Part shown: positions 8,657 through 55,280 of the stretch, one piece after another
How the letters are laid out: each line of letters begins with the position of its first letter
Numbering within the stretch: the stretch's first letter is position 1
DNA from: Candidatus Omnitrophota bacterium
Lineage (GTDB): Bacteria; Omnitrophota; Gorgyraeia; 2-01-FULL-45-10
Assembly: GCA_018823705.1 (NCBI GenBank)
Contig: JAHJHP010000009.1
Coordinates: 1-55,280 of the forward strand
Length of the DNA: 55,280 bases
Direction: 5' to 3'
Notes under the pieces: model-generated
Databases searched by the model: none
What the model was told of the DNA's origin: nothing
What the model saw: the letters and a program-made list of their open reading frames with translations, nothing else
Made by a program: the position numbers and the translations under genes

Positions 8657-9058
8657 CTACTCCTCTACTCTCTTGATCGTATATTGAGAGATATCGATTA
8701 TAAAATCGGGATCCGCGGTTTTAACATTCGGATATAGATAGTAAACGGCCTTTCTCGATTCCAGGGCTCCCTCGTCCATTCCTATTATATTATATGCGCT
8801 ATTTTCAGGCATCGTCGTCTTGCAATAAGTTAAAAAATCGTACAGCCTGTCGCCTGTTACATAGGAGTGTTTACCTTCAAGCGTCCTGGTCAGTAGATTT
8901 TTATAATCACGGATATTATTCTTTACGAAGAGCTCTCTCGCCAGGAATCCTATCCATAGGACAACCCAGACGATAAATAATATCTTTAAGATTGCTTCGG
9001 GCCTTCGGCCCTCGCAATGACGGTGTATTTTGTCCTTATACCACATTTTCAACGACAT
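8657..9058 (-). CDS. Small membrane-anchored hypothetical protein with a palindrome-derived N-terminal peptide
   Basis: TGATG overlap with the upstream stop, one TM segment (ILFIVWVVLWIGFLA), and a YYLYP motif like the soluble tails of GT-C proteins. Confidence 0.75.
   Translation of the reverse strand: MSLKMWYKDKIHRHCEGRRPEAILKILFIVWVVLWIGFLARELFVKNNIRDYKNLLTRTLEGKHSYVTGDRLYDFLTYCKTTMPENSAYNIIGMDEGALESRKAVYYLYPNVKTADPDFIIDISQYTIKRVEE
8989..9022. repeat. Half copy of the 4761-4851 palindromic element, in frame within a CDS
   Basis: AGATTGCTTCGG-GCCTTCGGCC-CTCGCAATGACG matches the right half of the intergenic element. The minus strand encodes RHCEGRRPEAI. Confidence 0.85.
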
Positions 9059-10455
9059 CAGTTTGCCACTATCCAGCGCATAAAACGCCTCGCTAAAAAA
9101 CCGAAATGTTTTGCCGACTGTATCGACTTTAACTGGTACATTATAATATGCGGCCGTAAATAAAATTTAGCAAAGGCGAGGCGATGCAGGCTCTTCAGCT
9201 CTTTTCTCGTTATCCCCGTGGGCACGTAAGCGGCATTGGTAAAATAAAACCTCTCCCAGTCTACATCCTTAAGTTCACCGCTGGCAAGTAATTTCGCATA
9301 GCTTTCCGTTCCCGGAAAAGGCAGATACGTGAAGAAGTTGGCCCTCTTTAGCGGAAGCTCAGCGGCAAAGTCGATCGTCTGCCTGATAGATTCCGGCGTC
9401 TCTCCGGGAAAGCCCAGTATAAAGAAACCGGCTATATCTATACCCGCCCTATCGATCTTATTGACGCATTCCCTTATCCTGGCCACGGTGATGCCTTTTC
9501 TCATCTCACTCAACACTTCATCCGAGCCGGACTCGATCCCAAGCGAAATCATATAAAGCCCCGTCTCTTTCATCAGGCCCAGGAGCTCATCATCCAGCGT
9601 ATCCATCCTGACACCGTTTGGAACAGCCCATGTCATGCCGAGATTCAGGGCCTTCAGCTTCCGTAAGAAATCCTTTACGTACTCCTTGTCCATTGTAAAA
9701 TTGTCATCAATGATATGAAATTCTCTTATTCCGAAATCATTATTGAGCATCTTTAACTCGCCCAGCACATTATCGATAGACCTGCGCCGTATCTTCTTTC
9801 CGGAGACCAAACTGCCCGCGCAGAAAGTGCATGGGTAAGGACAGCCCCTCGTCACCATGATCGGCGCTATCGGAAACTGTTTAAAGAACGCGCCGTGCTG
9901 AGACTCCGGATACTCCTGAGGCTTGATAAGGTCCCAGGCCGCGAGCCCCAGGCCATCGAGGTCATCCTGTATGACATTCGGATTGATCTTTATTGTCTGG
10001 CCATCTCTGAATGCGAGTCCGGGGATGTCGGAAAAGTCTTTCACGTCGGTTTTGTTCGCGCCACGTTCAATCGCTTTGACAAGCCGTGGAAACCCTGTCT
10101 CCGCTTCGCCTACGAATAGAAAATCGAGATCCTTCTCCGCTTTAAGCGTCTCTTCCGGCAGAGCCGAGGAATGCGGCCCGCCGATGACGGTCACGATATC
10201 CTTATTGAAAGCTTTTGCCGCCTTGAGAGCCTGCCTTATAAAAGGAAGGTCGAATGTATAGCATTGCAGCCCGAGGATCTCCGGGTTATACTCTTTAAGG
10301 AGAGCCATAAATTTATCTATGGTGAGATCGTCCTTAATGCAATCGACCAGCCTGACCTCATGTTCCTTCCGGATAGCGCTAGCCAGATACCCAAGCCCTA
10401 TCGACGGCTGGATATGGTCGCTCATATTGAAAGGTTTGGCTAGCAGTACTTTCAT
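9058..10455 (-). CDS. Cobalamin-binding radical SAM protein (class B-like)
   Basis: N-terminal B12-binding-type domain (PSIGLGYLASA, GGPH, GEAE), RGCPYPCTFC, IIDDNF, GIESGS, GFPGET. Confidence 0.9.
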   Translation of the reverse strand: MKVLLAKPFNMSDHIQPSIGLGYLASAIRKEHEVRLVDCIKDDLTIDKFMALLKEYNPEILGLQCYTFDLPFIRQALKAAKAFNKDIVTVIGGPHSSALPEETLKAEKDLDFLFVGEAETGFPRLVKAIERGANKTDVKDFSDIPGLAFRDGQTIKINPNVIQDDLDGLGLAAWDLIKPQEYPESQHGAFFKQFPIAPIMVTRGCPYPCTFCAGSLVSGKKIRRRSIDNVLGELKMLNNDFGIREFHIIDDNFTMDKEYVKDFLRKLKALNLGMTWAVPNGVRMDTLDDELLGLMKETGLYMISLGIESGSDEVLSEMRKGITVARIRECVNKIDRAGIDIAGFFILGFPGETPESIRQTIDFAAELPLKRANFFTYLPFPGTESYAKLLASGELKDVDWERFYFTNAAYVPTGITRKELKSLHRLAFAKFYLRPHIIMYQLKSIQSAKHFGFLARRFMRWIVAN

Positions 10456-11153
10456 TAATCGATAAACCTGTATTTGAGGATCGTCCAGAGCGCGCCAAAA
10501 CCGTCTTTCCAGGATATCTTCTTCCCTTCGGCATAGCTCCTGCCATAGTAGGATATCGGTATCTCGTAGATCCTCAGGGATTTATCTTTCAGTATCTTCG
10601 CGGTAAGTTCAGGCTCGACAGAAAAATCTTTTGACCGTATGTTGATACGGGCGATGACTTCTTTACGGAACATCTTATAACAGGTCTCGATGTCGGATAG
10701 AGTAGAATTATACAGTAAGTTCATCGTGAATGTCAGCAGGGTATTTCCGGCCTTATGCCAGAACATATGCACGCGCTGCGGCTTACCTCCGGAGAGCCTC
10801 GAGCCGTAGACGACGTCAGCCATACCGTCCTCTATGGGCTTTGCCATCTCCATAAATTCATTCGGGTCATATTCGAGGTCCGCGTCCTGCACAGTGACTA
10901 TCTCACCCGTAGCAGCCTTGAAGCCGGTACTGAGCGCCGCGCCCTTGCCGCTATTCTTTTCATGGAGCAGAACTTTTACTCTGGGATCGAGCTTGGTGTT
11001 TTTCAGGATATCCTTCGTCCCATCAGTAGATCCGTCATCTACTACTATGAGCTCTTTCACCATCTCGAGCTTCAGGACCTTTTCTATTATCTTTAAGACT
11101 GTATTCTTCTCATTGTAGACAGGCATGACGACCGACAGGATACCTTTTCGCAT
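10455..11153 (-). CDS. GT2, DPM1-like polyprenol-phosphate sugar synthase
   Basis: VVMPVYNE, VDDGSTDGT, NSGKGAA, QDADLEYDP, VVYGSR, DIETCYK, EGKKISWKDG. Confidence 0.88.
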   Translation of the reverse strand: MRKGILSVVMPVYNEKNTVLKIIEKVLKLEMVKELIVVDDGSTDGTKDILKNTKLDPRVKVLLHEKNSGKGAALSTGFKAATGEIVTVQDADLEYDPNEFMEMAKPIEDGMADVVYGSRLSGGKPQRVHMFWHKAGNTLLTFTMNLLYNSTLSDIETCYKMFRKEVIARINIRSKDFSVEPELTAKILKDKSLRIYEIPISYYGRSYAEGKKISWKDGFGALWTILKYRFID

Positions 11154-11170
11154 AATTCACATCCTTTAGA

Positions 11171-12244
11171 TTAAAAAACTTTAGACTTCTCGGCCAAAAT
11201 CTTTAGCAGTCCTTCGCTATCCGGGTTAATGACAACATCCGCTCCATGGAGAGGCCTTGTCATCTTCAATAATTTACCGAAAAACTCGTTATCCGTCAAT
11301 AGCACTTCCAGCTTCTTTTTCTTCTTACGCTTAAAAATCTTGTAGATCGATGCGATGCCAAAGAGCGCAGGCCGGAGATCTACCCGCCTTATATCGAAAT
11401 GATCTATAACTACAGGCCAGTTCAATCCCTTCTTCATGAATACTATGATCTGGTGTCCATTCCTGGCCACGCTCGTAGCGATCTGGTCCACTTTGTTATC
11501 GAACTTTTGCGTATCTATAAAATATCCCACTCTCACATGCCTTCCCCACCGCTTGAAGAATATCTTCTCATTATCGCTGAAGAGGTCCTGGTTATTCTCC
11601 AGCGCCTTGAAACTTACGTTCTCCTTGTGATATACGTACGCCGCCTTGGCGCGGGCCGTCTTATATCCGAGCTTCTGGGCTCTCTTGCAGTAATCCGTAT
11701 CGTCAAAATATCCCACGTGGTAGATCTCGTCCAATAGCCCGACGCGCTTGATCACGTCTCTCGTCAGTACCATGCAGAATCCCCGGCATGTGTAGAGCTC
11801 CTGGATCTGCCGTTTGAGCGGTTTCAGAGTAAGAGCGTAATCTTCTATCGACTTATCTTCGGGATACTGCCCGGAGGTATTGCTCGATGGGTTCAATAAC
11901 CCTATGGACGGGTTCGCCTCCATGACGTCTATCATCTCCTCGAGCCAGCCCGCGGCGGCTATGGTATCGTTATTCATGATACAGAGATACGGCGCATCGG
12001 ATACGACGAGGCCCTGATTCACGGCCTTCACGAATCCGAGGTTCCTATCGTTACGTATCAATAGGAAATCCAGGTCCTTATTATCTTTAAGGCCGGCCAG
12101 ATAATCTCGTGCGGGAGCATCGCTCCCGTTATCGATCACTATGAGCCTGTAAGGATACCCCGTATTCTTCACTATGGACTCGACGCATTCACGCGTTACT
12201 TCAGGCTGATTCCAGACAGGGATGATTATATCGCACTTACTCAT
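11171..12244 (-). CDS. GT2 glycosyltransferase with unknown C-terminal domain (paralog 1 of 4)
   Basis: CDIIIPVWNQ, IDNGS, NLGFVKAVNQG, MNNDT, GFC, GYFDDTDY; FKRWG junction followed by about 115 aa. Confidence 0.88.
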   Translation of the reverse strand: MSKCDIIIPVWNQPEVTRECVESIVKNTGYPYRLIVIDNGSDAPARDYLAGLKDNKDLDFLLIRNDRNLGFVKAVNQGLVVSDAPYLCIMNNDTIAAAGWLEEMIDVMEANPSIGLLNPSSNTSGQYPEDKSIEDYALTLKPLKRQIQELYTCRGFCMVLTRDVIKRVGLLDEIYHVGYFDDTDYCKRAQKLGYKTARAKAAYVYHKENVSFKALENNQDLFSDNEKIFFKRWGRHVRVGYFIDTQKFDNKVDQIATSVARNGHQIIVFMKKGLNWPVVIDHFDIRRVDLRPALFGIASIYKIFKRKKKKKLEVLLTDNEFFGKLLKMTRPLHGADVVINPDSEGLLKILAEKSKVF

Positions 12245-13004
12245 CTTTTTTTACCAGCTCCCAATATTTTGCCCATTTAAAGAAATTGATGGACGCGAAT
12301 AGGACTCCGAAGATAAGCCCGTAGGCTCCGTCTTTATATCCCTGTTTCTTCACATATGACTTCCAGAATACTTTGAACGTTCTTTTTATCAGCCCTTTTC
12401 TGATCTCACGTTCGCTCAAAACTCCATCGGTATCGAGCATCTTCTTTGCGGCGATCCCAGCGTATCTATTCTGTCTCTCTATAAATTGATTTATCGAATC
12501 GAACGGATAGTGGTCTATATCCGCGTCGATCATGCCGATGTTACCTTTGTAAACCGGCATCTCGTGGACATCGCCTTCATACTTTACATGCTTTTTATTT
12601 ACCAGATTGGGTATATAGTGGTGGAATCCTCCGTGATCCATAGAATGGCCCAGGAAGAAGTTCCTTCTCCTGAATTTATAGATGACCGCGGCCCCATCCG
12701 TGGCGAGCATGGCGGCAAGCTTATCCCTAAAACCTTCTGTTACGACGTCATCGGCATCAATATGCAGGACCCAGTCATATTTGGCGTTTTCGTTGCCTAC
12801 ATTCCGTTCATCGGCAAAAGACCCGCTGAATTTATGCTCTATGACTCGCGCGCCCCTGGACTTCGCTATCTCGGCCGTTTTGTCAGTACTGAATCCGTCG
12901 ACCAAGACTACATCATCCGCCCAGGTGATACTTTCAAGGCACCTGGCTATGCGCTTTTCTTCGTTCTTTGTGATGATCGCTACTGTGACTTTAATCTTTT
13001 CCAT
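12237..13004 (-). CDS. GT2, KdtX/WaaE-like LPS core glycosyltransferase
   Basis: IITKNEE, VDGFSTDKT, HIDADD, GDVHE, GYKDG. Start moved to the ATG at 13004 (MEKIKVTV) by comparison with the adjacent paralog. Confidence 0.85.
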   Translation of the reverse strand: MEKIKVTVAIITKNEEKRIARCLESITWADDVVLVDGFSTDKTAEIAKSRGARVIEHKFSGSFADERNVGNENAKYDWVLHIDADDVVTEGFRDKLAAMLATDGAAVIYKFRRRNFFLGHSMDHGGFHHYIPNLVNKKHVKYEGDVHEMPVYKGNIGMIDADIDHYPFDSINQFIERQNRYAGIAAKKMLDTDGVLSEREIRKGLIKRTFKVFWKSYVKKQGYKDGAYGLIFGVLFASINFFKWAKYWELVKKDE

Positions 13005-13809
13005 GCCCGCACTCGCACCCGCATTTTTCTTTTTTAGGTTCCGCCGTAAGCTCAGCATTGTATAGCATCTCTTTATATTTAACAAAGCTCATAAGCTGGT
13101 AGAGCCCCCCTGCCCATGAGATCGTAAATCCGAGAAGCCCGTCTTTAAATCCGCCCTTCTGGACATACCCTTTCAGGAATCTGCTGCACGCTTTTCGATA
13201 CATCTTTATGAAATTCACATTGCGGCGCTCTTTAAACCATTTTTTCGCCTCGAGCGTCGTCTGGTTATTTATGCTGACGAAGAAATCATGGAAATCCCTG
13301 TATGAATAGTGAATGATATCTTTCTTGAGATGTCCGCATGACCCATCGATAAATATCCTCGGATGGACCTCGGCTTCTTCATATTTGAACGCATCTTTAT
13401 CAAATAGGCGCACCTTTGGGGCAGGATACCAGCCGCTATGCCGTATCCACCTTTTACCGATAAAACTCTTGATGGGGATCGTATAGTGATTATCCTTCAT
13501 CTCGGTCTTTAGCAGGATCGTGATCTCTTCAGCGAGTTCCGGGGTGACACGCTCATCTGCGTCAAGAGAAAGGACCCACTTATTCTTTGCCAGGCTATAT
13601 GCGTAATTACGATGCCTGCCTTCATTGTCCATCTTTCTCGAGAAGACCTTACCGGTATGCTGCTTAGCGATGTTGACTGTATTATCTGTACTGGCATCGT
13701 CGAGCACAACTATCTCGTCTGCCCATGCGGCACTCCGCAGGCAGTCCGCTATATTATTTTCCTCGTTCTTCGTAATGACAACTATGGAAACAGGCGCTTT
13801 ATCGGACAT
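12991..13809 (-). CDS. GT2, KdtX/WaaE-like LPS core glycosyltransferase
   Basis: VITKNEE, LDDASTDNT, SLDADERVT, GWYP, VHP, GFKDGLLG. Confidence 0.88.
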   Translation of the reverse strand: MSDKAPVSIVVITKNEENNIADCLRSAAWADEIVVLDDASTDNTVNIAKQHTGKVFSRKMDNEGRHRNYAYSLAKNKWVLSLDADERVTPELAEEITILLKTEMKDNHYTIPIKSFIGKRWIRHSGWYPAPKVRLFDKDAFKYEEAEVHPRIFIDGSCGHLKKDIIHYSYRDFHDFFVSINNQTTLEAKKWFKERRNVNFIKMYRKACSRFLKGYVQKGGFKDGLLGFTISWAGGLYQLMSFVKYKEMLYNAELTAEPKKEKCGCECGHGKD

Positions 13810-13810
13810 C

Positions 13811-14833
13811 TTAATAGTACCTCACTTTCGCTTTATGGATAAATGAAAGAGCCTCTAGTGATCTCTTGAACTTCTCTCCTCCTACAAATATTTCGCTGAA
13901 ACGTTTCTTCTTTGTCAATACCCTGAATGTCGTATTTAAATAGAAATTGCCCTTATCTGAAGCCACCGTTATTATATTCGAATGAATAGGGATTTGCTCA
14001 CCATTTTTTGTAAAGAACCATATCCAGTTACCTCCTCTGGCAAGCTTCAGGGAATCGGCTTCGAGCCTCTTCAGGATATTGGCGTCATACAGGTCGAGAA
14101 TATAGGCGATCCTCCCGGGTTTGCCCCACCTGAATTCGAATATCTCCTTATTCCTTTTAAAGTCGTTATCAAATGTCCTGACTTTGCTGAACGATGAATT
14201 TTCCCTGTGATAAACATACGCGCCGCATGCCCTGACGCACTTATAGCCTTCCTTTACCGCTTTACGCGAAAAGTCCGTGTCCTCGAAATTACCCATCCCA
14301 TACACTTCATCAAATAGCCCTACTTTGCTTATCAGGTCCCTTTTGATGAGCATGCAGAACCCTATTGCGGCGCCAAGCTCGACAGATTGTCCGGAATTCT
14401 GCCTGATCTTTTCGGCGTACAGAGCTACCGGCTCGCCATCTGCCGGCTTCTGGCCCAGGTTGTTGCTCGATGGATTGACAATCCCTATGTCGGTGGAGCT
14501 ATTGGCTACAGCTATCATCTCTTCGAGCCAGCCCTTTGTGACCAGGGTGTCATTATTTAAAAGGCATAGAAGCGGCGCATCCGAGGCGCTCAGTCCCTGG
14601 TTAACAGCCTTAACGAAACCTTTGTTCTCTTCGTTTCGTATTAATTTTATAGGCAGAGCGGCGGACGCTTTTAGCGTTTCGAGATACTTTTTAGTCTCAT
14701 CATCGCTTGCGTTATCTATTACTATGATCCCGTATTTGCCGGACGTATTCTTCTTTATCGAGTCGATACAGTCTTTTGTGAAAGCCGGCTGATTCCAGAC
14801 CGGTATTATTATATCGCACTTCATATAGTCCAT
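13811..14833 (-). CDS. GT2 glycosyltransferase with unknown C-terminal domain (paralog 2 of 4)
   Basis: CDIIIPVWNQ, IDNAS, GFVKAVNQG, LNNDT, GNFEDTDF, FRWGK junction. The start may be the ATG at 14824. Confidence 0.88.
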   Translation of the reverse strand: MDYMKCDIIIPVWNQPAFTKDCIDSIKKNTSGKYGIIVIDNASDDETKKYLETLKASAALPIKLIRNEENKGFVKAVNQGLSASDAPLLCLLNNDTLVTKGWLEEMIAVANSSTDIGIVNPSSNNLGQKPADGEPVALYAEKIRQNSGQSVELGAAIGFCMLIKRDLISKVGLFDEVYGMGNFEDTDFSRKAVKEGYKCVRACGAYVYHRENSSFSKVRTFDNDFKRNKEIFEFRWGKPGRIAYILDLYDANILKRLEADSLKLARGGNWIWFFTKNGEQIPIHSNIITVASDKGNFYLNTTFRVLTKKKRFSEIFVGGEKFKRSLEALSFIHKAKVRYY

Positions 14834-14940
14834 ATTATAGTTTAGTTATAGCTAAATTGCATGATGTTTTTTTGCCATTTTTGATCATATCCGGAAGGTA
14901 ACTTTATCGGTGGGTAGCGCTATTTATTATCTTCTAAAAC

Positions 14941-15243
14941 TTACACATTGGCCAGAAATTGTTTAACCTGGTTATGGTTCCCGACTAGCATTGCTATGCA
15001 CTTTTCATCCTCTCGCCTTATAATCACTCGAATAGTTCCTTCAACGCCGGCTTCATGATAGGGCTTTCTTAGCTGTTTATAAAAAAATCGTGGGGAGATT
15101 TTTTGCGCTTCATATAGATCGCACCCACTAGAATAATAAACAGTTAAAGACTCAAGTATCAGCCCTACTATTTTTTTCTGTTCATACCCAAGGCGCTCGA
15201 GGCTTCTGTTAAAAGAAGGCCTGTAATAAAGATACAGGGGCAT
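14941..15243 (-). CDS. Putative RelE/ParE-superfamily toxin
   Basis: 100 aa, 3 bp downstream of an AbrB-type gene. The pattern YYRPSFNRSLERL...KQLRKPYHEAGV..IRVI...VGNHNQVKQFL resembles RelE-like folds. Confidence 0.55.
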   Translation of the reverse strand: MPLYLYYRPSFNRSLERLGYEQKKIVGLILESLTVYYSSGCDLYEAQKISPRFFYKQLRKPYHEAGVEGTIRVIIRREDEKCIAMLVGNHNQVKQFLANV

Positions 15244-15246
15244 TGG

Positions 15247-15504
15247 TTATGATTTCCCATTTTTTAAATTACCTATAAACTTTTTTGTCGCGCGCTTTTC
15301 TTTCCCAGCTTCCTTGGCGGCGAGGGTCTCTAATTTAGCATATTCCTCATCTGTAAAATGTCTCTCTTTTGTCTCTAGCGGAATAAGCTCTATTCCGTCC
15401 TTAGAAAACTCTACTTCAAACATAGACCCGCTTCTTAAGCCTAAAGCATCTGTGACCTTCTTAGGTATGGTTATTTGATTCTTAGCTGTCATCGTGATTG
15501 TCAT
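15247..15504 (-). CDS. AbrB/MazE/SpoVT-family DNA-binding protein (putative antitoxin)
   Basis: MTAKNQITIPKKVTDALGLRSGSMFEV...IELIP. Start placed at ATG 15504, after SD GGAGGTG and downstream of the promoter. Confidence 0.85.
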   Translation of the reverse strand: MTITMTAKNQITIPKKVTDALGLRSGSMFEVEFSKDGIELIPLETKERHFTDEEYAKLETLAAKEAGKEKRATKKFIGNLKNGKS

Positions 15505-15524
15505 CTTTCTCACCTCCCGCATGA

Positions 15525-15553
15525 AGTATACCACAAAGTAAGGAAATCGTCAA
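15525..15553 (-). promoter_or_regulatory. Sigma70-type promoter of the AbrB/toxin pair
   Basis: TTGACG (15553-15548), 17 bp, TATACT (15530-15525), with extended TGn. Confidence 0.75.
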
Positions 15554-25048: not shown

Positions 25049-25051
25049 CTG

Positions 25052-25978: not shown

Positions 25979-25995
25979 GTGTGCCTCCGTCATTT

Positions 25996-26967: not shown

Positions 26968-26968
26968 C

Positions 26969-27727: not shown

Positions 27728-27751
27728 AGCTTATTATTTTCCAATGCTTAT

Positions 27752-31817: not shown

Positions 31818-31823
31818 AGCGGT

Positions 31824-34036: not shown

Positions 34037-34059
34037 ATAAAATAATTTCCTTGTTCGTA

Positions 34060-35235: not shown

Positions 35236-35246
35236 TTTAACCTGAC

Positions 35247-36191: not shown

Positions 36192-36215
36192 GTTTAACCT
36201 CGTTTGTTGATGGTC

Positions 36216-43563: not shown

Positions 43564-43573
43564 GCGCCAGGCC

Positions 43574-46385: not shown

Positions 46386-46403
46386 ACCGTAACCCCTCTC
46401 TCC

Positions 46404-47819: not shown

Positions 47820-47851
47820 TATACAATATCCCCGCTTGACACGACTTTCGA

Positions 47852-49405
47852 TTACCGTGATTTAAAGATCCTGTGCAAAACGTTAAAAAGCTTATCTCTC
47901 CATGGGCCATCTTTCTCACATAGCCTGACAAGAGGATAGGCGATCTTAGGGACTTTTCTATAAAGGCTAAAGGTCTTAGCGAGCCCTACGATCTCCGCCG
48001 GAGGTAACTGCGGCATATTCAGATAGCTCTCAGTGTAGCGATAGTTTTCGCATTCATCTGGCAGAAAACCGGCTTCTACAGCCATCTTGCGGATAGCCGT
48101 GCCCTCCCATGGCTGCAGGATCATAACGCTCGAATTCTGCGCCCTGGCCTTTCGATTCAGCTCAATAGTCTCAAACACGTTACCTCTTGTCTCAAAAGGC
48201 ATACCTACCATATTAAGTGTACTCGTGCGGATACCATACTTATTGAGAATGCTTATGCCTCTGATTATCTGGCTGTTCGTCATCTTCCTGTTCAGCACCC
48301 TTCTACGGATATCCTCGCTTCCGGATTCAATTCCGGCAGACACGTTTACACAACCCATCTCCTTAAGAAGCTTTGCCTTGTGCTCGGTAACCATATCGAG
48401 CCTGGCGGCAATAAGAAATGGAAGGGCTATCTTTTTATAGCCCTGAGCAAACTCCTCCATCTCCTTATCGCTATATAGAAAAAATTCCTCATCCCAGAAT
48501 TTCATCATCTCAAGGTCGTATTTATCTTTAAGAAAAGATATCTCCTCTATAGCGCGCGGAATGCTCTTTTTACGAAAATAGCGCCCCTTCCCTTTGTATA
48601 GTTCCTGCAGCCGGTCGTTATTGCAATAGGAGCACCTGTGAGGGCAGCCTCTCGAGAGCTCGAGATGTCCATAGCGATATACTTTACCGCAAAAAGGCTT
48701 GTAAAAATGGCGTTTATCAAAAAGTGTCCAGTCAGGAAAAGGTAGCGCGTCAAGGTCTTCGATAAGCCTGATATCATTCTTCACCACCCCCGAAGAAGTC
48801 TTGACCCAAAGGTTACGGACAGCATCATAGGGTTTCCCCTCCCGGATGCGCAGGCACAGGTCTCGAAACGGCGCCTCCCCCTCACCAACGCATACGATAT
48901 CAACGTTCGCATTTTTTATGAACTTTTCAGGATTCATCGTCACGCATTTTCCGCCGATAATCAATGGGCAGTTTTTTCGGGAAATACCGTCCACGAGAGC
49001 CATGGCCAGAGGATAATTGTAAGAGGTCGGGACTGTAACGGCTATGATATCCGGATCAAACTCCTTTATCTTAGCGTTAAGATCGCCTATATGATCCCGC
49101 TCCTCACGGACAACGCCGTATTTTGTCATGTCAGCCGGCAGGAATTCTCCCACTTTCTCGTTTTTCTGTCGGTCTTCATAATTGGTTATCTTGTAGTATG
49201 TTGTATCGAATATATCGACCGTACACTGTTCCTTCCGCGCTATAGCGATAAGCGATGAAAGCCCTATCGGCAAGAAACCCTCAATGCCTGACATGGGGTT
49301 TACAAATAGTATCTTTATATTAACGATATTCCGGGACTCATCCGCGGCGCCTGGAATTCCGGATACTTCTTCATTGGAATTGATCATGCTCTGTTCTCCT
49401 TGCAT
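47852..49405 (-). CDS. Cobalamin-binding radical SAM protein
   Basis: LPIGLSSLIA, IIGG, GEGE, SRGCPHRCSYC, WDEEF, GIESGS, GMPFET; TAATG overlap at the start. Confidence 0.9.
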   Translation of the reverse strand: MQGEQSMINSNEEVSGIPGAADESRNIVNIKILFVNPMSGIEGFLPIGLSSLIAIARKEQCTVDIFDTTYYKITNYEDRQKNEKVGEFLPADMTKYGVVREERDHIGDLNAKIKEFDPDIIAVTVPTSYNYPLAMALVDGISRKNCPLIIGGKCVTMNPEKFIKNANVDIVCVGEGEAPFRDLCLRIREGKPYDAVRNLWVKTSSGVVKNDIRLIEDLDALPFPDWTLFDKRHFYKPFCGKVYRYGHLELSRGCPHRCSYCNNDRLQELYKGKGRYFRKKSIPRAIEEISFLKDKYDLEMMKFWDEEFFLYSDKEMEEFAQGYKKIALPFLIAARLDMVTEHKAKLLKEMGCVNVSAGIESGSEDIRRRVLNRKMTNSQIIRGISILNKYGIRTSTLNMVGMPFETRGNVFETIELNRKARAQNSSVMILQPWEGTAIRKMAVEAGFLPDECENYRYTESYLNMPQLPPAEIVGLAKTFSLYRKVPKIAYPLVRLCEKDGPWRDKLFNVLHRIFKSR

Positions 49406-50250
49406 TACCTTTTTCGGGCTATTATATACATGATATCGTATAAGTTCAAATAGAATTGCGCTCTACCCAATCCGCTCTTGCGCAAAATATCACAAAACCA
49501 TCTTCCTCCCTTATTGGCAAGCGATATCCTGTGCAAAGTCATATCGATACTGCGATAGAATCCGCAATAACCGCTATATATAACGTCAAATCCGTTATTA
49601 TCGAGCAGTTTACTGAGCGTCTGCTTGGAAAAATAATGAATGTGCGTAGGCGCATTCATAATGCGCCATTTATTCTTTTTCATGCGGGCGTTCAGGCTTC
49701 CGACATCACCGGTTGTTATAGCTACCAGCGCACCCTTATCCATCATATTCTTTGATATCTTAGATAAGCACCCGGCAGGGTCGCTCAAATGCTCTATCGT
49801 GTCCCACAGGCAAACGACGTCGAACTTCTGCCCATTAAAATCGTGTGGCAAAAAGTCGTCGGTTACCACGTCAAGTCCGAGCTCATCCCTGGCGTACGCG
49901 ACGCCGTCCGCTGTAACATCAATGCCCTTGAGAGTGCCAAAGTAAGATCTGGCGACATCAAGAAAAAATCCGTAAGCACAGCCGATTTCAAGAAGTCTCT
50001 TGTGCCTCATGGGATCTAAGAATTTGCGCAACTTCTTAAGGCGTAGCTTAAAATTATCCCGGGTGATCTTTTTATCGGCAAGATAATCGCTATATTCACC
50101 ACCGAAAAAGTAGTTCTTACCGTATAATTCCGACAGCTTATTATTCTGCGATGGCATATTACAAAATACGTGACCACACCCCAAACAGCGCAAGATACCC
50201 GGATAGGCCTGTTCCACATCGACGCGGTCACATATGATGCATCTGTTCAT
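49405..50250 (-). CDS. Class I methyltransferase with N-terminal CxxC pairs
   Basis: CIIC...CLGC, LEIGCAYGFF, WDTIEHL, PTHIHYF. Confidence 0.9.
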   Translation of the reverse strand: MNRCIICDRVDVEQAYPGILRCLGCGHVFCNMPSQNNKLSELYGKNYFFGGEYSDYLADKKITRDNFKLRLKKLRKFLDPMRHKRLLEIGCAYGFFLDVARSYFGTLKGIDVTADGVAYARDELGLDVVTDDFLPHDFNGQKFDVVCLWDTIEHLSDPAGCLSKISKNMMDKGALVAITTGDVGSLNARMKKNKWRIMNAPTHIHYFSKQTLSKLLDNNGFDVIYSGYCGFYRSIDMTLHRISLANKGGRWFCDILRKSGLGRAQFYLNLYDIMYIIARKR

Positions 50251-51191
50251 TTTACAGCCGCCTCCGTTACTATGAATGGCGGGCGCCCTTTAGTCTGATC
50301 ATAGATTCTGCCGACGTATTCGCTCAATATGCCTATTGCAACCAATTGAACGCTACCCAGGAAACAGACAGCCATGACAATATCTGTGTATCCTGGCGGC
50401 ACCGGTATATTTACTATTCCAAGCACTTTAAGGACCCATATAGTTAATACCATGATTATATACGCTGAAGAGCAACCTAGTATCACAAGAGCGAAGAGCA
50501 TCACCAGGTGCAGGGGATATCTTCCGAAGGAGAATATACCATCGAGGGCAAGCCTGGAGAGGGATCGAAATGAATATTTAGGAAGACCGCTATGCCTCTT
50601 TCCGACATTGTAAGGTATCCCCTGCTGCCTGAAACCGATCCAACTTACCTGACCGCGCAAGAATTTGTGGCACTCAGGCATATCGAGTAATACGCTAAGG
50701 ACTTTTTTGTCGAGAAGCCTGAAGTCAGACTGACCGAAACTCAAACTTAACCCCGATACTTTTGAGATGAACCGGTATGAGGCCTTGACGATCAGATTTT
50801 TAAGGAAAGGTAAATTAGCGTTTTCCTTCGTCGTATAGACAACCTCTGCGCCATTACGCCACATCTCAACCATCTTAGGTATCAGTGAAGGCGGGTGCTG
50901 CAAATCCGCATCCATGGTTATGCAAGCATCGCCTGCAGCCTTGGTCATCCCCGCGAAGATCGCACACTGATGCCCGAAGCTTCGCGAAAGTGAAAGATAG
51001 CCGACCTTCGGGTCCGCATTACGCAACCTCTTTACCGCGTCCAGCGACCTATCGGTGCTTCCGTCATCGACGTATATCATCTCGTAATCTACGCCTGCTT
51101 CAGAGCATGCCTGTTTCACCTGATTATAAAGCTCTTCTATGTTGCTCTCTTCATTATGCACAGGGAAAACTATCGATATTATATTCTTCAT
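50247..51191 (-). CDS. GT2, GtrB/ArnC/YkoT-like polyprenol-phosphate sugar synthase
   Basis: FPVHNEE, VDDGSTD, LSRSFGHQ, MDADLQHPP, SDFRL, two TMs, EYVGRIY..KGRP. Start placed at ATG 51191. Confidence 0.9.
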   Translation of the reverse strand: MKNIISIVFPVHNEESNIEELYNQVKQACSEAGVDYEMIYVDDGSTDRSLDAVKRLRNADPKVGYLSLSRSFGHQCAIFAGMTKAAGDACITMDADLQHPPSLIPKMVEMWRNGAEVVYTTKENANLPFLKNLIVKASYRFISKVSGLSLSFGQSDFRLLDKKVLSVLLDMPECHKFLRGQVSWIGFRQQGIPYNVGKRHSGLPKYSFRSLSRLALDGIFSFGRYPLHLVMLFALVILGCSSAYIIMVLTIWVLKVLGIVNIPVPPGYTDIVMAVCFLGSVQLVAIGILSEYVGRIYDQTKGRPPFIVTEAAVK

Positions 51192-51193
51192 AT

Positions 51194-51376
51194 TCAGCTT
51201 GCCTTTCTGCGCGGTAATACCGCGCATGATTTTTCAATATCATCTGCCTCTATATCCAGCAACTCAACGCAATGACTGTGATCCTTGATTTCATGAGCGG
51301 TATAGGCCATTCTGAATAAAGGAAAGAGATGTTCCATATCACCCAGCATCATAGGATTTATCAATAATACGTTCAT
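51194..51376 (-). pseudogene. Remnant of a B12-binding radical SAM gene (about the first 50 codons)
   Basis: MNVLLINP...FPLFRMAYTAHEIKDHSHCVELLD parallels the starts of neighbours (MRFLFINP...PPFGILYIAAVLEHNGHEVKVLE), then breaks off at a 19-bp palindrome. Confidence 0.65.
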
Positions 51377-52422
51377 ATCAACTTATCCAAAAGCCCTTCT
51401 GCGTAGTCATCAATATCGCTTAAATGATTCACGCCATCCATATATTGGCAATCTGCACATGGTGAAATCATATGCTTTTTATTGGTAAGATGCAAAACCC
51501 TGAATTCGCGCATTTTACCGCCGTTCCAGATATCAACAAGGCTATCCTGTTTTGCGTCTCCAATGACTGTTCCGAAACTCCAGTCAACACAACACACTGA
51601 GACTGTGCCATCAAAATTTACCGACATGGTCTTGAACGGCTGGGGGCAAACTTTTCTGCCAATTTTTAGAGGCGTTATCCCATCCATGCCAGTTGTAGGC
51701 AAAAGTCCCATTTTGAAGTCTTTTTTCCCGGAAAGGCTCCATCCTATCACTGTATCCACGCCTACTGAGTCCGATATCGGACTAAAATCAGATAGAAAGC
51801 GCTTTTTCTCATCGGCCGTCAGGTTGATATCAAGGATCTTGGCATGAATTTTAAGACTGCTATTCCTTTTGCACTTGAGCTTATAGAGAAATGCGACATT
51901 CTTCCGTATCTTTTTGTAATCAGAGAAAGTCTTTGTAAATTTTTTGTAGCCTGAATCACTTACATGTTCGACGGATATCCTGATTGCGTCGAGACCGGCA
52001 TCGACAACCTCCCTTGCGCGCTCTTTTGTGATCAGGGAACCGTTTGATGTTGTTTCGACTGATCGAGCTATTTTCATCTTCTTCGCATACGCGACCATTT
52101 TGCTAAAGTCTTCATTGACGAACGGCTCCCCGTCCTTGTAGAGATATAATTTTTCGATCTTACCCTTAAAACCGATGACGCCGTCTACGACGTGCTTGAA
52201 GATTGGGAAAGGCATGATTCCGACCTTTCTGCCTACGGAGCTCAATAAGCTTCTGTCTCCGGTCGGGCAGAATGAACACATGAAATTGCACACACTTGAC
52301 GGGTCTATTATAAGAGATAGCGGAGCCTCTAGGGGCAATATCTCCGAAAGCTTCTTATAGCCTTCATTGCCTGTCTGCCCCGTACACCGTATCCTATTTT
52401 TTGATCTTTTGATCGATCTCAT
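51373..52422 (-). CDS. Radical SAM protein with SPASM/twitch domain
   Basis: DPSSVCNFMCSFC, YKDGEP, TSNG; CPQPF...DGTVSVCC...IG...IWNG...CADC. Confidence 0.9.
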   Translation of the reverse strand: MRSIKRSKNRIRCTGQTGNEGYKKLSEILPLEAPLSLIIDPSSVCNFMCSFCPTGDRSLLSSVGRKVGIMPFPIFKHVVDGVIGFKGKIEKLYLYKDGEPFVNEDFSKMVAYAKKMKIARSVETTSNGSLITKERAREVVDAGLDAIRISVEHVSDSGYKKFTKTFSDYKKIRKNVAFLYKLKCKRNSSLKIHAKILDINLTADEKKRFLSDFSPISDSVGVDTVIGWSLSGKKDFKMGLLPTTGMDGITPLKIGRKVCPQPFKTMSVNFDGTVSVCCVDWSFGTVIGDAKQDSLVDIWNGGKMREFRVLHLTNKKHMISPCADCQYMDGVNHLSDIDDYAEGLLDKLI

Positions 52423-53182
52423 ATAGAAGAAAAGGATCTTCTTTCATTTTCTTAACGGTAAATCTGTACAATTCATCCGCGTTTAGCAGCTTCACAAAAC
52501 TTCCGTTAGGGAATATAGTCATTTTAACGAATCCGGCCTGTTCAAAAAGCTTACTCATCGGTTCTACATTCGTTTTCACCCCAAGTTCCAATTTTCTAAC
52601 AAAAATGGAATATGTTTTCGAGGATAACTTGCCATTTTCGTCAGTATAGAGGCCTCTAAAATCCTTATGATACCTATAGTCGACATGCAGCATCTCTTCT
52701 ATATGATGAAAAAACGTCATGCTACGTTGAATGGAAATATCTATCAGCATGATCTTCCCGTTGCGCCTTCTTAATTCACCAAAGATGGATTCGTCGGAAT
52801 AAGCGCTTTCATTGTCTATCTTCGCAAAATCCTCTTTCAGTCTTCCAATAACAGCGAATGAATAGACGGGATGCTTCGTCCTCACAGACTCCGGCAGTTT
52901 CATAGCATACGTAGTCAAGCTACCCATCTGGCTCTTTGTTTCCTTGATTGAAAAAGACTCACCGGAACAAAAGCCAAAGTTAAAGGTTGGAAAAATCAGC
53001 GTGCCCGACTCTCCTACTTTGTTAAGCATATATTTATAGAATATTTCGCAAAAATCTTCCGGCCTGCCAGGCGATATAACTTGTGAAATTAGAGTAATAT
53101 CGCTATGTATAAGGACAACATCACCCTTTTTTATTCCTAGGATATCTAGCGATTCAATCGTAGTCATTCTCTGCCACCCCAC
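52394..53182 (-). CDS. AAC(3)-family (Antibiotic_NAT) N-acyltransferase
   Basis: GIKKGDVVLIHSD, GTLIFPTFN, RTKHPVYSF, TFFHHIEE, YRY. Confidence 0.88.
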   Translation of the reverse strand: MGWQRMTTIESLDILGIKKGDVVLIHSDITLISQVISPGRPEDFCEIFYKYMLNKVGESGTLIFPTFNFGFCSGESFSIKETKSQMGSLTTYAMKLPESVRTKHPVYSFAVIGRLKEDFAKIDNESAYSDESIFGELRRRNGKIMLIDISIQRSMTFFHHIEEMLHVDYRYHKDFRGLYTDENGKLSSKTYSIFVRKLELGVKTNVEPMSKLFEQAGFVKMTIFPNGSFVKLLNADELYRFTVKKMKEDPFLLYEIDQKIKK

Positions 53183-53189
53183 AATCGGC

Positions 53190-54497
53190 TCATCTGCTTA
53201 CCAATCCGCAAGCTATGAACCTCTCAATGTAATCCCTCGTCTTCCAATATTCGAGGTCCAGCTTTTCCGCTATATTGAAAACACTGTTTTTGCCGTCAAA
53301 ATGCTGCATGATCAAGTATATGTTCGCATTGATGGCCGCATCTTCTTTAGGGCTAACCCATAGGCCATACCGGGTTAAGAATGCTGGCCCCGTAAACTTA
53401 CGTCGAGGGATGTAATCAGACGCAAAGATGCGCGCGATCTCCTCTACCACATCCACTGTCTTTTGAAGCCTGTCTTCATGGATAATATCCATGTTGTCCG
53501 CGCTGGTATGATACTCCTTATAAGGATAACGGCTTATCGAGATACAGGGAACATCAACACCAGGCCCGTTTATGACCTTTTCATCATTTCCTACAACCTT
53601 CAGAAATGCGCCCTCCCTGAAACCTGGTTCAAGCCTTCTTAGCACATAGCGCGCTATTCTATCTATTTTATGATCGCCCTGCCAGGACTTTTGAAGGACT
53701 AGAGAATTCCTGTTCCCCGCCATTTCAATAAATATACCCGCCTTGAGACGTTTAACAACTTCTTTGTGATGACTTAGATAACATATACTGCCTATCGTTT
53801 CCGGGCAAAAAAGAAAGCGGATCGCGCTGCTTCCTTCCGGTAACGGTCTGGAAACAAGTCTTCGCGCGATCTCAACGGCAACAGCAACTCCTGATAGCCC
53901 ATCGTTCGCCTGGTACGGGTGATCTATGTGGCCGCATATTATGAGATCTCCGGACTGCTTATCGTGCCGCGGACCTGAAGAAAGGCGTGCAATACCGACT
54001 TTAAGCCCCTTTTTTGCCGCGGTAATGAACTTGGCGCGAATGACTACATGAAACCGCCCCTTCCTGGGCAACCTGTCATATTCGTTCTTTGTAAGAGAGA
54101 ACCCCCACTCCTTCACGTAGTATGCATACTGCCATGGTATCGCGGATGGGATCTTTTCTGAATAATGCAGGTGTGTCTTTAATTCATCCCATGTCATTCG
54201 TTTTTGTATCGGAACTGAGTAGGATACAAGATGCATAGGGTTCAAGTTGAAATCCGCCACTCGCCTGCCATCCTCAAGCTCTATATATGCCTCGTCGACC
54301 TCATAGCGTGGAGGTACCTGCCATGTCCACGCGCGCGACATCGGGGCATAGCATTCGATCGAATATTTTGCCGAGGCCGGTATGCGGCTACCGATCATTT
54401 TTAGCGCCTTATCGGTATCATTATGGACCAAAGTCCGGTAAAGAGGATATAGCTCTCTAACTATTTCTTTTATCATATGTTTTCTACTTTTCACCAT
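53190..54497 (-). CDS. DUF4910/DUF2172 aminopeptidase-like protein with C-terminal winged helix (Cj1295-like)
   Basis: WQVP, HLVSYS, AIPW..YY..WGF, HIDHP..ANDGLSG, PETIGS, YHTSADN, DGKNSVFNIA. Confidence 0.85.
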   Translation of the reverse strand: MVKSRKHMIKEIVRELYPLYRTLVHNDTDKALKMIGSRIPASAKYSIECYAPMSRAWTWQVPPRYEVDEAYIELEDGRRVADFNLNPMHLVSYSVPIQKRMTWDELKTHLHYSEKIPSAIPWQYAYYVKEWGFSLTKNEYDRLPRKGRFHVVIRAKFITAAKKGLKVGIARLSSGPRHDKQSGDLIICGHIDHPYQANDGLSGVAVAVEIARRLVSRPLPEGSSAIRFLFCPETIGSICYLSHHKEVVKRLKAGIFIEMAGNRNSLVLQKSWQGDHKIDRIARYVLRRLEPGFREGAFLKVVGNDEKVINGPGVDVPCISISRYPYKEYHTSADNMDIIHEDRLQKTVDVVEEIARIFASDYIPRRKFTGPAFLTRYGLWVSPKEDAAINANIYLIMQHFDGKNSVFNIAEKLDLEYWKTRDYIERFIACGLVSR

Positions 54498-54508
54498 TAT
54501 TACACCTC

Positions 54509-55280
54509 CTATCGCTTAAGATCTTCGGATATTGATACCGTCCCTTTATCATTTAACACGATTCTAGTCGACTCGTCCCGGAACCGTGCAAACAATAACC
54601 CGCATATCTTCCTCAGAACGAAATAGGTTTCGTACACAAGCGGCGTAATAATATGTATCATGACAAATTTATACGGTGCTAATTTGGATGCCTTACCCGC
54701 TCGAAACAAGTTCTTATCAAGCTCTTTAAGAACCATCATCCTCATCAACTTTACAACAATATCCGGGTATTTCGTAAAGTTGATCGTTAAGACCATCGCG
54801 TCACGATTCGCCACTATCTCGAGATACCGAACGGTATTTTTTATCAGTCCCTGCTCAGTGCACCACCTAAACAACCTGGACCCGGGATAAGGCGTGGTAA
54901 AAAATACAGCGCTATCGGTAATTCCGGCCTCCTTTATCGCGTTAATCGTATTCCGCAGCGTATCCCGCGTCTCCCCGGGCGTTCCTACCATAAACGAGCA
55001 GGCCGGCGTAATGGCTGTATCGCTTATCAATTGATATGCCTTGATGTTGGTCGAGCGCGACATACGCTTCCCTAAAATTTTCAAAATTGTGTCGTCCCCG
55101 GATTCAAAACCATAGGCAAGATAATAGCAATTGGAACCCTCAAGCGCCTCGAGAAGTTCATGCGTAACGTAATCCGCCCTTATTGAACAGGAAAAGTAGG
55201 CATCCGGAAAATTGTTGGTCATCATCGCCGAAAATTCGCGCGCCTGTTTTGGATTATAAAGAAAAAGGTCTTCCCCCATG
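54509..55280 (-). CDS. Radical SAM protein, probably cobalamin-binding class; C-terminal part only
   Basis: EDLF, SIRAD, YGFESG, FMVGTPGET, TPYPGS match the C-terminal halves of the six complete paralogs. The CxxxCxxC motif and B12 domain would lie beyond the window. Confidence 0.8.
   Translation of the reverse strand, partial: MGEDLFLYNPKQAREFSAMMTNNFPDAYFSCSIRADYVTHELLEALEGSNCYYLAYGFESGDDTILKILGKRMSRSTNIKAYQLISDTAITPACSFMVGTPGETRDTLRNTINAIKEAGITDSAVFFTTPYPGSRLFRWCTEQGLIKNTVRYLEIVANRDAMVLTINFTKYPDIVVKLMRMMVLKELDKNLFRAGKASKLAPYKFVMIHIITPLVYETYFVLRKICGLLFARFRDESTRIVLNDKGTVSISEDLKR

Follow-up and report, generated by a model that had tools for sequence, protein, structure and literature searches.

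Clustered B12-binding radical SAM genes in a surface-glycan locus of Candidatus Omnitrophota

Radical SAM genes of the window

The window analysed here is a stretch of 55,280 bases that forms the whole of one contig (JAHJHP010000009.1, C94 below) in the genome of an uncultured groundwater Candidatus Omnitrophota bacterium (assembly GCA_018823705.1; genome G000, 1.70 Mb in 97 contigs, 99% complete), and the genes in question are those for B12-binding, or class-B, radical S-adenosylmethionine (SAM) enzymes that lie there among genes for a surface glycan. The sizeable genes are on the minus strand throughout, as is every window feature given below, and overlaps of stop and start codons are frequent. 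Domains PF02310 and PF04055 were found together by Pfam in six minus-strand open reading frames (ORFs), with PF02310 scoring 42.8 to 80.8 bits against a cut-off of 32.1. These are rS1 (9058-10455; PF02310 67.3 bits, PF04055 97.1 bits; CPYPCTFC), which belongs to the conserved core of the lineage; the semi-conserved rS2 (17905-19266; 80.8 and 58.9 bits; CIYNCSFC); rS3 (23603-25048; 66.3 and 71 bits; CPNRCIFC), the first gene of the variable part; rS4 (27752-29239; 73.4 and 76.3 bits; CPARCTFC), also variable; rS5 (40187-41707; 61.1 and 66.8 bits; CPFSCSYC), with a hydrophobic C-terminal tail that is retained in the consensus of its family; and the variable rS6 (47852-49405; 42.8 and 85.2 bits; CPHRCSYC), with an N-terminal extension. 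In all six full-length genes the CxxxCxxC motif lies inside a PF04055 domain that scores above cut-off, and each of the strings RGCPYPCTFC, RGCIYNCSFC, RGCPNRCIFC, RGCPARCTFC, RGCPFSCSYC and RGCPHRCSYC occurs once, within rS1-rS6. The original prediction, made by eye from the sequence, had named six complete enzymes with these intact motifs, and the domain searches agree with it.

The same prediction had listed a seventh gene cut by the edge and one remnant. The seventh, rS7 (54509-55279), runs off the contig end and encodes the C-terminal 256 amino acids of a class-B-type radical SAM enzyme (PF04055 38.1 bits, profile positions 60-165; 113 bits to a hidden Markov model (HMM) of the class-B paralogs, positions 245-416), its motif region lying beyond the contig end. 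The remnant was recovered at 51197-51382 as a weak match to the HMM built from 15 paralogs: in an unfiltered search of 920 stop-to-stop segments of at least 30 amino acids, a 62-aa segment matched profile positions 1-49 (E 2.4e-4, 15.8 bits), corresponding to about 50 N-terminal amino acids of a B12-binding radical SAM protein. It fills the gap between a family 2 glycosyltransferase (GT2) gene at 50247-51227 and a SPASM-domain gene at 51373-52422. A tblastn search of the window with its nine radical SAM proteins gave nothing beyond the nine genes at E<=1e-3 and noise only at E<=50. Two further CxxxCxxC strings, at 24189 and 47460, are out of frame and were set aside as chance motifs.

Blastn of both window ends against all contig ends yielded no partner for the cut end of rS7; only the end opposite rS7 resembles a contig, C29. 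Bases 1-35 of the window are the reverse complement of the start of C29 and a further 189 bases are 81% alike, which an assembly junction or a repeat at this contig end might explain. The ORF at 1-1512 (504 amino acids), which runs off this end, belongs to no Pfam or NCBIfam family and has no counterpart in the searched region of the same-genus genome G004.

Two radical SAM genes without a B12 domain complete the set. The one at 51373-52422 carries a clear SPASM domain (PF13186, 57.7 bits against a cut-off of 21.5; PF04055 54.7 bits; CNFMCSFC). In the other, at 39043-40149 (PF04055 86 bits; CNLKCLMC), the C-terminus is SPASM-like with a score just below cut-off (20.2 against 21.5), and no NCBIfam cut-off was reached; the two SPASM/twitch enzymes of the original prediction are these, the second as a weak case. 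Five class I SAM methyltransferases, likewise predicted, were found by Pfam at 26969-27727 (PF13489, 87.2 bits), 31080-31817 and 31824-32840 (PF08241, 75 and 60.3 bits), 43574-44401 (PF13489, 76 bits) and 49405-50250 (PF13489, 78.3 bits), the last overlapping both neighbours at its start and stop. In total, 9 of the 42 ORFs in 9058-55280 encode radical SAM enzymes. Genome-wide there are 19 matches to PF02310 and 42 to PF04055 in 1.70 Mb, so that the class-B genes are clustered far beyond an even spread.

The class-B paralogs are mutually 23-37% identical and so, in agreement with the original prediction, are not recent duplicates. None of the six full-length genes has an interrupted frame, and each retains the columns of the cluster motif and of the GGxHP, GxESG and GxPGET types; that the paralogs are still intact at this distance from one another points to long-term selection.

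Conserved core, variable part and wider super-locus

The genes around the radical SAM set are those of a lipopolysaccharide (LPS)-type surface-glycan locus, as had been proposed. The window holds 11 GT2 genes, two of GT4 type, a GT9 gene, a Wzy_C gene, a WecA-type gene, three GT-C-like genes and a GmhB-like gene; GT9, Wzy_C and PF00953 score 103, 70.2 and 121 bits, and genes for lipid A and Kdo lie elsewhere in the genome (LpxC 289 bits, Kdo transferase 196.5 bits). No Wzx or Wzm/Wzt was found by Pfam in the window. Genes of Wzx type are on contigs C32 and C14, and an ABC exporter is encoded in the corresponding region of G004.

Comparison with 40 related genomes reaching up to class level, among which G001, G003 and G004 belong to the same genus, divides the locus into a conserved core from 1.6 to 23.6 kb, containing rS1 and rS2, and a mosaic variable part from 23.6 to 55.3 kb. 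Positions 1627-23601 are collinear with G004 at 67-89% protein identity. Collinearity stops at the gene at 22633-23601, and from rS3 onward the similarity to G004 is at paralog level only, save for an island at 32837-38063. The window DNA was found again in groundwater metagenome runs; in one run a contig about 9% diverged spans the conserved part, and another contig, from a related population, departs at about 23,583 into unlike sequence. The lack of close orthologs in relatives together with this departure at the 23.6-kb boundary gives indirect support to a diversifying pressure on the variable half.

The core contains the operon of rS1. Its last gene is a GmhB-like heptose-1,7-bisphosphate phosphatase gene of the HAD-IIIA type (6670-7275; NF006506 170.1 bits against 178), which adjoins a gene for a polytopic GT-C-like glycosyltransferase resembling ArnT/PMT_2 (7272-8651; PMT_2 23 bits against a cut-off of 26.1; about nine hydrophobic segments). 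Next come a gene for a 133-aa protein (8657-9058), which has no Pfam or NCBIfam match and by hydropathy only a single membrane segment, then rS1 itself, and then a GT2 gene resembling AglJ, PpgS and ArnC, whose stop overlaps the start of rS1 (10455-11153; PF00535 136 bits). This arrangement recurs throughout the lineage. The GT-C gene, the 133-aa gene and rS1 are adjacent in that order in 8/8 relatives, which range from members of the genus to a different family of the class, with the GT-C gene at 32-75% identity; the GmhB-like gene adjoins the GT-C gene in the same eight, and the ArnC-like GT2 stands directly upstream of rS1 in all seven whose contig reaches that far.

Further core genes are six GT2 genes (11171-12244, 12237-13085, 12991-13809, 13811-14833, 15673-16731 and 16721-17908; PF00535 70-94 bits each), which are 67-84% identical and collinear in G004; rS2; a heptosyltransferase-like GT9 gene of LPS core type (19263-20354; PF01075 103 bits; heptosyltransferase II model 124.1 against 134.6); a gene for a Wzy_C membrane protein of the O-antigen ligase/polymerase (WaaL) type (20351-21634; PF04932 70.2 bits against 31.7; about ten hydrophobic segments); one for an initiating polyprenyl-phosphate sugar-1-phosphate transferase of the WecA/MraY type (21576-22616; PF00953 121 bits; WecA model 97.5, below cut-off); and, as the last core gene, an NAD-dependent sugar-nucleotide dehydratase/epimerase gene (22633-23601; PF16363 217.7 bits), 89% identical in G004. 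The array of core GT2 genes is interrupted between the fifth and the sixth, counting that next to rS1, by a two-gene insertion (14941-15534) that is absent from the collinear G004 region and whose translations resemble a toxin-antitoxin pair: a 95-aa AbrB/SpoVT-like protein and a 100-aa partner. The family label was read by eye, the 95-aa sequence resembling an AbrB/SpoVT-type antitoxin; 14941-15243 gave no Pfam match at E<=1e-3 and 15247-15534 no NCBIfam match at E<=1e-15. Together, the radical SAM remnant and this insertion speak for turnover in the locus.

In the variable part, a PgfS/ArnC-like GT2 gene with C-terminal membrane segments lies directly upstream of rS3 (25052-26107; PgfS 245 bits against a cut-off of 500, ArnC 166 bits), followed by another GT2 gene (25996-26967; PF00535 85.6 bits). 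A polytopic GT-C-like gene stands directly upstream of rS4 (29188-31083; PMT_2 30.8 against 26.1; about 14 hydrophobic segments). The semi-conserved island identified with Pfam and NCBIfam at 32837-38063 comprises a GDSL esterase, a GT4, a 136-aa membrane protein, a DUF4330 protein and a GT4/TuaH-like protein plus DUF218, with 51%, 60%, 38% and 62% identity to G004. A GT2 gene (38145-39038; PF00535 49.8 bits) precedes the weaker SPASM gene, and the stop of a third GT-C-like gene abuts the start of rS5 (41707-43638; PMT_2 26.4 against 26.1; about 12 hydrophobic segments). Beyond it are a glutamine amidotransferase fused to a WbuX-like N-acetyl-sugar amidotransferase (44424-46385; PF13522 45.4 bits; TIGR03573 140.2 against 203.2), a 471-aa protein of no known family (46404-47819; no Pfam or NCBIfam match) and, two genes upstream of rS6, a second PgfS/ArnC-like GT2 with C-terminal membrane segments (50247-51227; PgfS 259.6 bits against a cut-off of 500, ArnC 151.9), 39% identical to that at 25052-26107. 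Between the clear SPASM gene and rS7 are genes for an N-acetyltransferase-like protein of the AAC(3) family (52394-53182; PF02522 98.8 bits) and a DUF4910/DUF2172/M28-like protein (53190-54497; PF16254 177.4 bits). NCBIfam AAC(3) models give the former at most 50 bits against cut-offs of at least 270, so it probably serves amino-sugar N-acylation and not drug resistance.

Some of these coordinates overlap at the start sites, by 95 bases between 12237-13085 and 12991-13809, by 112 between 25052-26107 and 25996-26967 and by 52 between 27752-29239 and 29188-31083. Each ORF is given here from its earliest candidate start codon; the downstream genes probably begin later than listed.

The distribution of the class-B genes among the relatives is patchy and follows the same division. 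rS1 is found at 59% identity or more in 15/40 relatives (59-86% across families of the class), and the best 120 database homologs listed are 61-100% identical, those with names all being Candidatus Omnitrophota or Omnitrophica. rS2 reaches at least 50% in 15/40 relatives and 85% in G004; in G001 and G003, two of the four same-genus genomes, it has paralog-level matches only. rS3 reaches at least 60% in only three relatives, all from outside its own family, with a same-genus best of 37%. The best matches of rS4 are 50% and 40%, none from its own family, while rS6 finds 34-42% and rS5 at best 38%. Database entries related to rS5 that carry a name (46-56% identity) belong to an archaeon, Patescibacteria, Aureabacteria and Woesearchaeota, which suggests exchange across domains, and GC content dips to 0.401 at 40-42 kb, where the gene sits. 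rS5 was probably acquired horizontally.

Beyond the window, the paralog HMM found 15 full-length class-B genes in the genome, plus fragments at five contig ends (C14, C77, C35, C95 and C94; the piece on C77 is 127 amino acids long). As these five contigs break within such genes, the true count would be about 18 and not 15; the assembly perhaps breaks within the locus from strain variation. Fourteen of the 15 lie among sugar-nucleotide and glycan genes, on C94, C32 (rml-type genes, UDP-glucose dehydrogenases, DegT, AsnB-like, Wzx and PMT_2-like), C14 (DegT, NeuB, Wzx), C17 (GT2, a thiamine pyrophosphate-dependent E1 pair, GHMP kinase, nucleotidyltransferase), C77 (GT9, methyltransferase) and C59 (PseB-like, DegT, CMP-transferase, deacetylase, GT2). 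The remaining gene, on C43, has an ambiguous context, and a YgiQ-like gene on C70 is of a different kind. In the far less fragmented G004, 14 class-B genes lie in 85 kb of one contig, in a region with 70 of its 72 annotated ORFs on one strand, about 19 methyltransferases, three more radical SAMs, GT2/GT4/PMT_2 genes, NeuB, DegT and CMP-transferases in addition to the ABC exporter. The far end of this region matches C32, so C94 and C32 probably lie at opposite ends of a single super-locus of about 100 kb, a linkage of contigs that we infer from synteny with G004.

Throughout the class, comparable loci take up about 100 kb in genomes of 1.4 to 2.2 Mb. The count per genome that had been proposed as a check gave 0 to 24 B12-domain matches per relative, figures that are not exact copy numbers, with at least 10 in 20/40. 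The finding is real and larger than first noted, and the class-B genes probably form a lineage-wide and partly mobile set. Two gene fusions were also seen near class-B genes elsewhere: in G004 a class I methyltransferase-GT2 fusion (L021:9057-10436) lies directly upstream of one, and the reverse order, GT2-methyltransferase (L028:9526-10986), occurs two genes from one in an unrelated uncultured bacterium.

Family comparisons and corrinoid supply

The class-B enzymes of the window fit no curated family. None of rS1-rS7 reached a cut-off of the NCBIfam class-B models (BchE, PhpK, BzaD, KedN5, TsrM-type, AprD4 and others). The best-scoring curated model was HpnJ or BchE, with 68-189 bits against cut-offs of 481-578, and the maxima were 188.7 against 577.6 for HpnJ (TIGR03471, reached by rS1), 105.6 against 650 for HpnR (TIGR04367), 175 against 481 for BchE and 107 against 500 for AprD4. 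A search for squalene-hopene cyclase (PF13243) gave no match in the 99%-complete genome. A clustering with hopanoid or lipid methylases, which had been named as the outcome that would tell against a glycan role, was thus not found, on the grounds of these scores and of the missing cyclase.

Against solved structures, the profile of the 15 paralogs aligns across both the B12 and the radical SAM domains of QCMT (9ccb), TokK (7kdx), OxsB (5ul2), TsrM (6wte) and CysS (9n1b), with E values from 2.6e-47 to 2e-33. These five enzymes act on a protein glutamine, a carbapenem, a nucleoside, tryptophan and cystobactamid respectively, with no glycan among their substrates. Enzymes that act on sugars are known within the class: section 17 of a review of class-B enzymes describes GenK, GenD1, MoeK5 and Fms7 as characterised Csp3-methyltransferases (PMC12931638). 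GenK, GenD1 (GntE), MoeK5 and Fms7 are like the proposed enzymes in being class-B radical SAMs that methylate unactivated sugar carbons, but they belong to secreted small-molecule pathways with one or two copies per cluster. No curated model of their families was matched.

Two other systems resemble the rS1 operon in their logic. In hopanoid biosynthesis, HpnI forms N-acetylglucosaminyl-bacteriohopanetetrol (BHT), HpnK glucosaminyl-BHT and HpnJ the BHT cyclitol ether (PMC12324291). Here, too, a GT2 would attach a sugar to a lipid for subsequent remodelling by a B12-binding radical SAM enzyme, but the acceptor lipid would be polyprenyl phosphate and not a hopanoid, the scores to HpnJ are 68-189 against 577.6 bits, the genome lacks a match to squalene-hopene cyclase, and the neighbours are LPS and glycan genes. 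Arn and Gtr systems unite a GT2 polyprenyl-phosphate sugar synthase and a polytopic GT-C enzyme in one operon, and in the former ArnD, a deformylase, carries out a tailoring step on the carrier-bound sugar. Like ArnC/ArnD/ArnEF/ArnT and GtrA/GtrB, the rS1 operon pairs a GT2 and a GT-C with a proposed tailoring enzyme, in an order kept in eight of eight relatives; unlike them, it has a B12-binding radical SAM in this place instead of a deformylase, and no flippase of the GtrA or ArnE/F type was found. The locus belongs to none of these systems, whether HpnI/HpnK/HpnJ, Arn/Gtr or GenK/MoeK5-type.

The pairing of carrier-synthase-like GT2 and class-B genes extends beyond rS1. The GT2 at 10455-11153 scores 118 bits to AglJ (cut-off 325), 64 to PpgS and 62 to ArnC, all below cut-off, as are the model scores of all three carrier-synthase-like GT2s of the window (PgfS 245-260 against 500; ArnC 62-166 against 529); by hydropathy, two of the three have C-terminal membrane segments. 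All four ArnC/PgfS-like GT2s found in the genome lie no more than three genes upstream of a class-B gene, the fourth being on C59, three genes upstream. The three GT-C-like genes of the window, whose products have 9-14 hydrophobic segments (PMT_2 23, 30.8 and 26.4 against 26.1), are each within one gene of a class-B gene.

A search for genes of B12 uptake or salvage, suggested with the original prediction, found a cobalamin riboswitch (99.8 bits) on contig C13 at the head of a 15-gene cluster for salvage and import. The cluster encodes a CbpB-type radical SAM, CobC, CobU, CobT, CobS, threonine-phosphate decarboxylase (CobD), cobyric acid synthase (CobQ) and CbiB, followed by a Dph6-like ATP pyrophosphatase-type protein, BtuF, BtuC, BtuD, CobA and a TonB-dependent receptor. 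The first gene behind the riboswitch (about 27100-28480) is the CbpB-family gene, with 683 bits to TIGR04163 against a cut-off of 375. CbiC is absent from the genome and only two TP_methylase matches were found in it, so that the organism would import and complete corrinoids without synthesis of the ring; no match to a PduO-type adenosyltransferase (PF01923) was found in the genome, the CobA type being present instead. The cobalamin riboswitch occurs in 35/40 relatives, and the sole relative with no B12 domain has neither riboswitch nor CobS. A co-occurrence of CobS with radical SAM richness was considered and rejected, since many rich genomes are without CobS, which 14 of the 40 relatives have.

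Proposed role of the class-B enzymes

The class-B radical SAMs are probably tailoring enzymes of the surface glycan. The first interpretation, a heavily C- and O-methylated and cobalamin-dependent surface glycan, holds for the surface-glycan locus, the B12-binding domains, the corrinoid salvage and the distance from hopanoid and lipid methylase families; as to the methylation itself, precedent makes C-methylation the likeliest main chemistry, one of several possible, and we put it forward tentatively. A part in evading phages or predators or in contact with a host, also raised in the original prediction, is speculative.

The substrates, chemistry and order of steps may be sketched as follows. 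The window would represent the conserved end and part of the variable body of an LPS-type super-locus of about 100 kb on a single strand. Each class-B enzyme would use its [4Fe-4S] cluster and SAM to form a 5'-deoxyadenosyl radical, which would take a hydrogen from a sugar carbon that is not activated; the resulting radical on the substrate would then receive a methyl group from methylcobalamin or, in some paralogs, undergo rearrangement, dehydration or epimerisation. For rS1 at least, and probably for rS3-rS6, the substrate would be a sugar on polyprenyl phosphate. A GtrB/ArnC-type GT2 would load the carrier, the radical enzyme, sometimes together with a class I methyltransferase, would alter the sugar, and the polytopic GT-C enzyme would transfer the altered sugar to the growing glycan outside the cytoplasm. 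The variable part with rS3-rS7 would be mosaic and horizontally exchanged around a conserved core with rS1 and rS2, and the cofactor would come from imported corrinoids completed by the cell.

The operon of rS1 looks like an Arn/Gtr-type periplasmic glycosylation system with a radical step on the carrier-bound sugar, and that at least one class-B enzyme works in a conserved carrier-lipid module appears to be the best explanation of the arrangement. Whether rS1 itself acts on a sugar by the carrier-lipid route we regard, from its neighbours, as an evenly balanced question.

Several observations weigh against these proposals. Sequence does not reveal whether cobalamin is bound or a methyl group transferred, and according to the review cited above the non-methylating members of the class are indistinguishable in sequence from the methylases, while AprD4 and ArsL do not bind cobalamin (PMC12931638). 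The profile's top structure match is to AprD4 (6fd2), a dehydratase that lacks cobalamin binding, and covers the radical SAM half only; HpnJ, the nearest curated model for rS1, rS3, rS6 and rS7, is a ring-contracting enzyme and no methylase. No flippase of the GtrA or ArnE/F type was called by Pfam in window ORFs of at least 100 amino acids. G004 has one ArnC-like GT2 for 14 class-B genes, so the carrier-lipid route cannot cover all paralogs; others adjoin sugar-nucleotide enzymes or class I methyltransferases. CobS was not found in several class-B-rich genomes, G008 (24 B12-domain matches) and G026 (17) among them, and no RNA runs containing 23603-33600 were listed. Outside the phylum, a single-protein query for rS5-like loci gave none and an alignment query gave 80 from other phyla, with annotated flanks in 14 (35-42% identity); only 3 of these 14 have a glycosyltransferase-type neighbour, so that the glycan link rests on the Omnitrophota contexts. 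Three Desulfobacterota loci (L027, L032 and L041) have a thymidylate-synthase-like gene near the rS5-like gene, L027 and L032 a metallophosphoesterase too, and none of the three has a glycosyltransferase-type gene nearby.

Four other explanations were weighed. The enzymes might alter lipids, such as the polyprenyl carrier, the acyl chains of lipid A or membrane-spanning lipids, in the manner of HpnP/HpnR, ladderane-associated and tetraether enzymes. Partial NCBIfam matches to HpnJ, HpnR and a 'lipid biosynthesis B12-binding/radical SAM' model would fit this, as would the membrane tail of rS5, a UbiA prenyltransferase gene adjoining one class-B gene of G004, a 3-ketoacyl-acyl carrier protein synthase III gene and a short-chain dehydrogenase/reductase gene near that on C59, and papers on tetraether lipid producers in which both Omnitrophota and radical SAM are mentioned. 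The scores are far below cut-offs, however (no more than 106 bits to HpnR, where 650 are required, and no more than 131 to the ladderane model, where 360 are), squalene-hopene cyclase was not found in the genome, and glycosyltransferase and sugar-nucleotide genes overwhelmingly dominate the immediate surroundings, which leaves a role in lipids improbable. A role in modifying a peptide or protein, be it a ribosomally synthesised and post-translationally modified peptide (RiPP), an S-layer protein or a pilin glycoprotein, would make the SPASM proteins maturases and the PMT_2-like proteins protein O-glycosyltransferases; SPASM domains are indeed frequent in peptide maturases, PMT_2 is named for protein mannosyltransferases, and there are partial matches to ApyD and to a 'RiPP maturation radical SAM C-methyltransferase' model. 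Yet ApyD reaches at most 152.5 bits against 750, no gene for a precursor peptide, RiPP recognition element, protease or peptide exporter was called by Pfam in the window, and the only radical SAM of the genome that is clearly of a peptide-modifying kind (CbpB, 683 bits) sits elsewhere, behind the riboswitch, so we consider this role very unlikely.

It is also highly unlikely that the variable part makes a secreted glycosylated small molecule of the aminoglycoside or phosphoglycolipid type and not a surface polymer. The best structure match, AprD4, comes from apramycin biosynthesis, a gene of the AAC(3) acetyltransferase family is present, and GenK, GenD1, MoeK5 and Fms7 are all, as the review describes them, from antibiotic pathways (PMC12931638); but no strand switch separates the variable part from the LPS core genes (GT9, Wzy_C, WecA-type), no gene for 2-deoxy-scyllo-inosose synthase, a cyclitol or prenyl-phosphoglycerate was called in the window, the AAC(3) models stay at or below 50 bits against at least 270, and loci of this size recur class-wide in genomes of 1.4 to 2.2 Mb. 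The least credible account is that chance has preserved many of the paralogs, as decaying or non-functional copies, in a locus that evolves fast: the remnant at 51197-51382 and internal stops in one rS2-like and three rS6-like matches in relatives are what it would expect, but the six full-length genes are open with their cluster motif and GGxHP, GxESG and GxPGET-type columns kept, and rS1 keeps 59-86% identity from family to family within the class. Tailoring of the surface glycan remains the reading we prefer.

No published description of such a class-B-rich glycan locus was found in the literature searched. As to the original remark that well-studied O-antigen loci would typically carry few or no such enzymes, the main text of a survey of Escherichia coli surface polysaccharides has no occurrence of 'radical', 'cobalamin' or 'methyltransferase' (PMC10072801); the main text of Seymour et al. 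2023 has none of 'radical', 'glycosyltransferase' or 'lipopolysaccharide', although its supplements may list such genes (PMC10066038); and the article text retrieved from Omnitrophota papers mentions radical SAM solely as a domain of giant proteins. The review of the class, whose main text is without 'polysaccharide', 'glycan' and 'sugar', counts 83,589 class-B sequences in over 100 groups, the biggest of them unexplored (PMC12931638).

If the proposed role is correct, a phylum of abundant groundwater nanobacteria that spends about 1% of its genes in this way in an LPS locus would hold a large reservoir of unknown sugar chemistry. To our knowledge, the sugar-acting class-B members studied so far all belong to antibiotic pathways or hopanoid biosynthesis, and the conserved four-gene operon of rS1 would be a tractable entry to the enzymology. 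A bolder and rather doubtful reading is that Omnitrophota and other ultra-small anaerobes share a radical Arn/Gtr pathway, a combinatorial kit of 100 kb and a dozen or more steps exchanged across phyla, in which a sugar would be C-alkylated or ring-contracted on polyprenyl phosphate and then planted on LPS by a GT-C enzyme. Were this so, carbon-branched or carbocyclic glycans would resist ordinary glycosidases and phage depolymerases, and the envelope of a corrinoid auxotroph would be tied to B12 from its neighbours. For the tailoring role itself, envelope synthesis in these bacteria would depend on imported corrinoids, a dependence that would bear on their resistance to cultivation and on their interactions with hosts, phages and prey.

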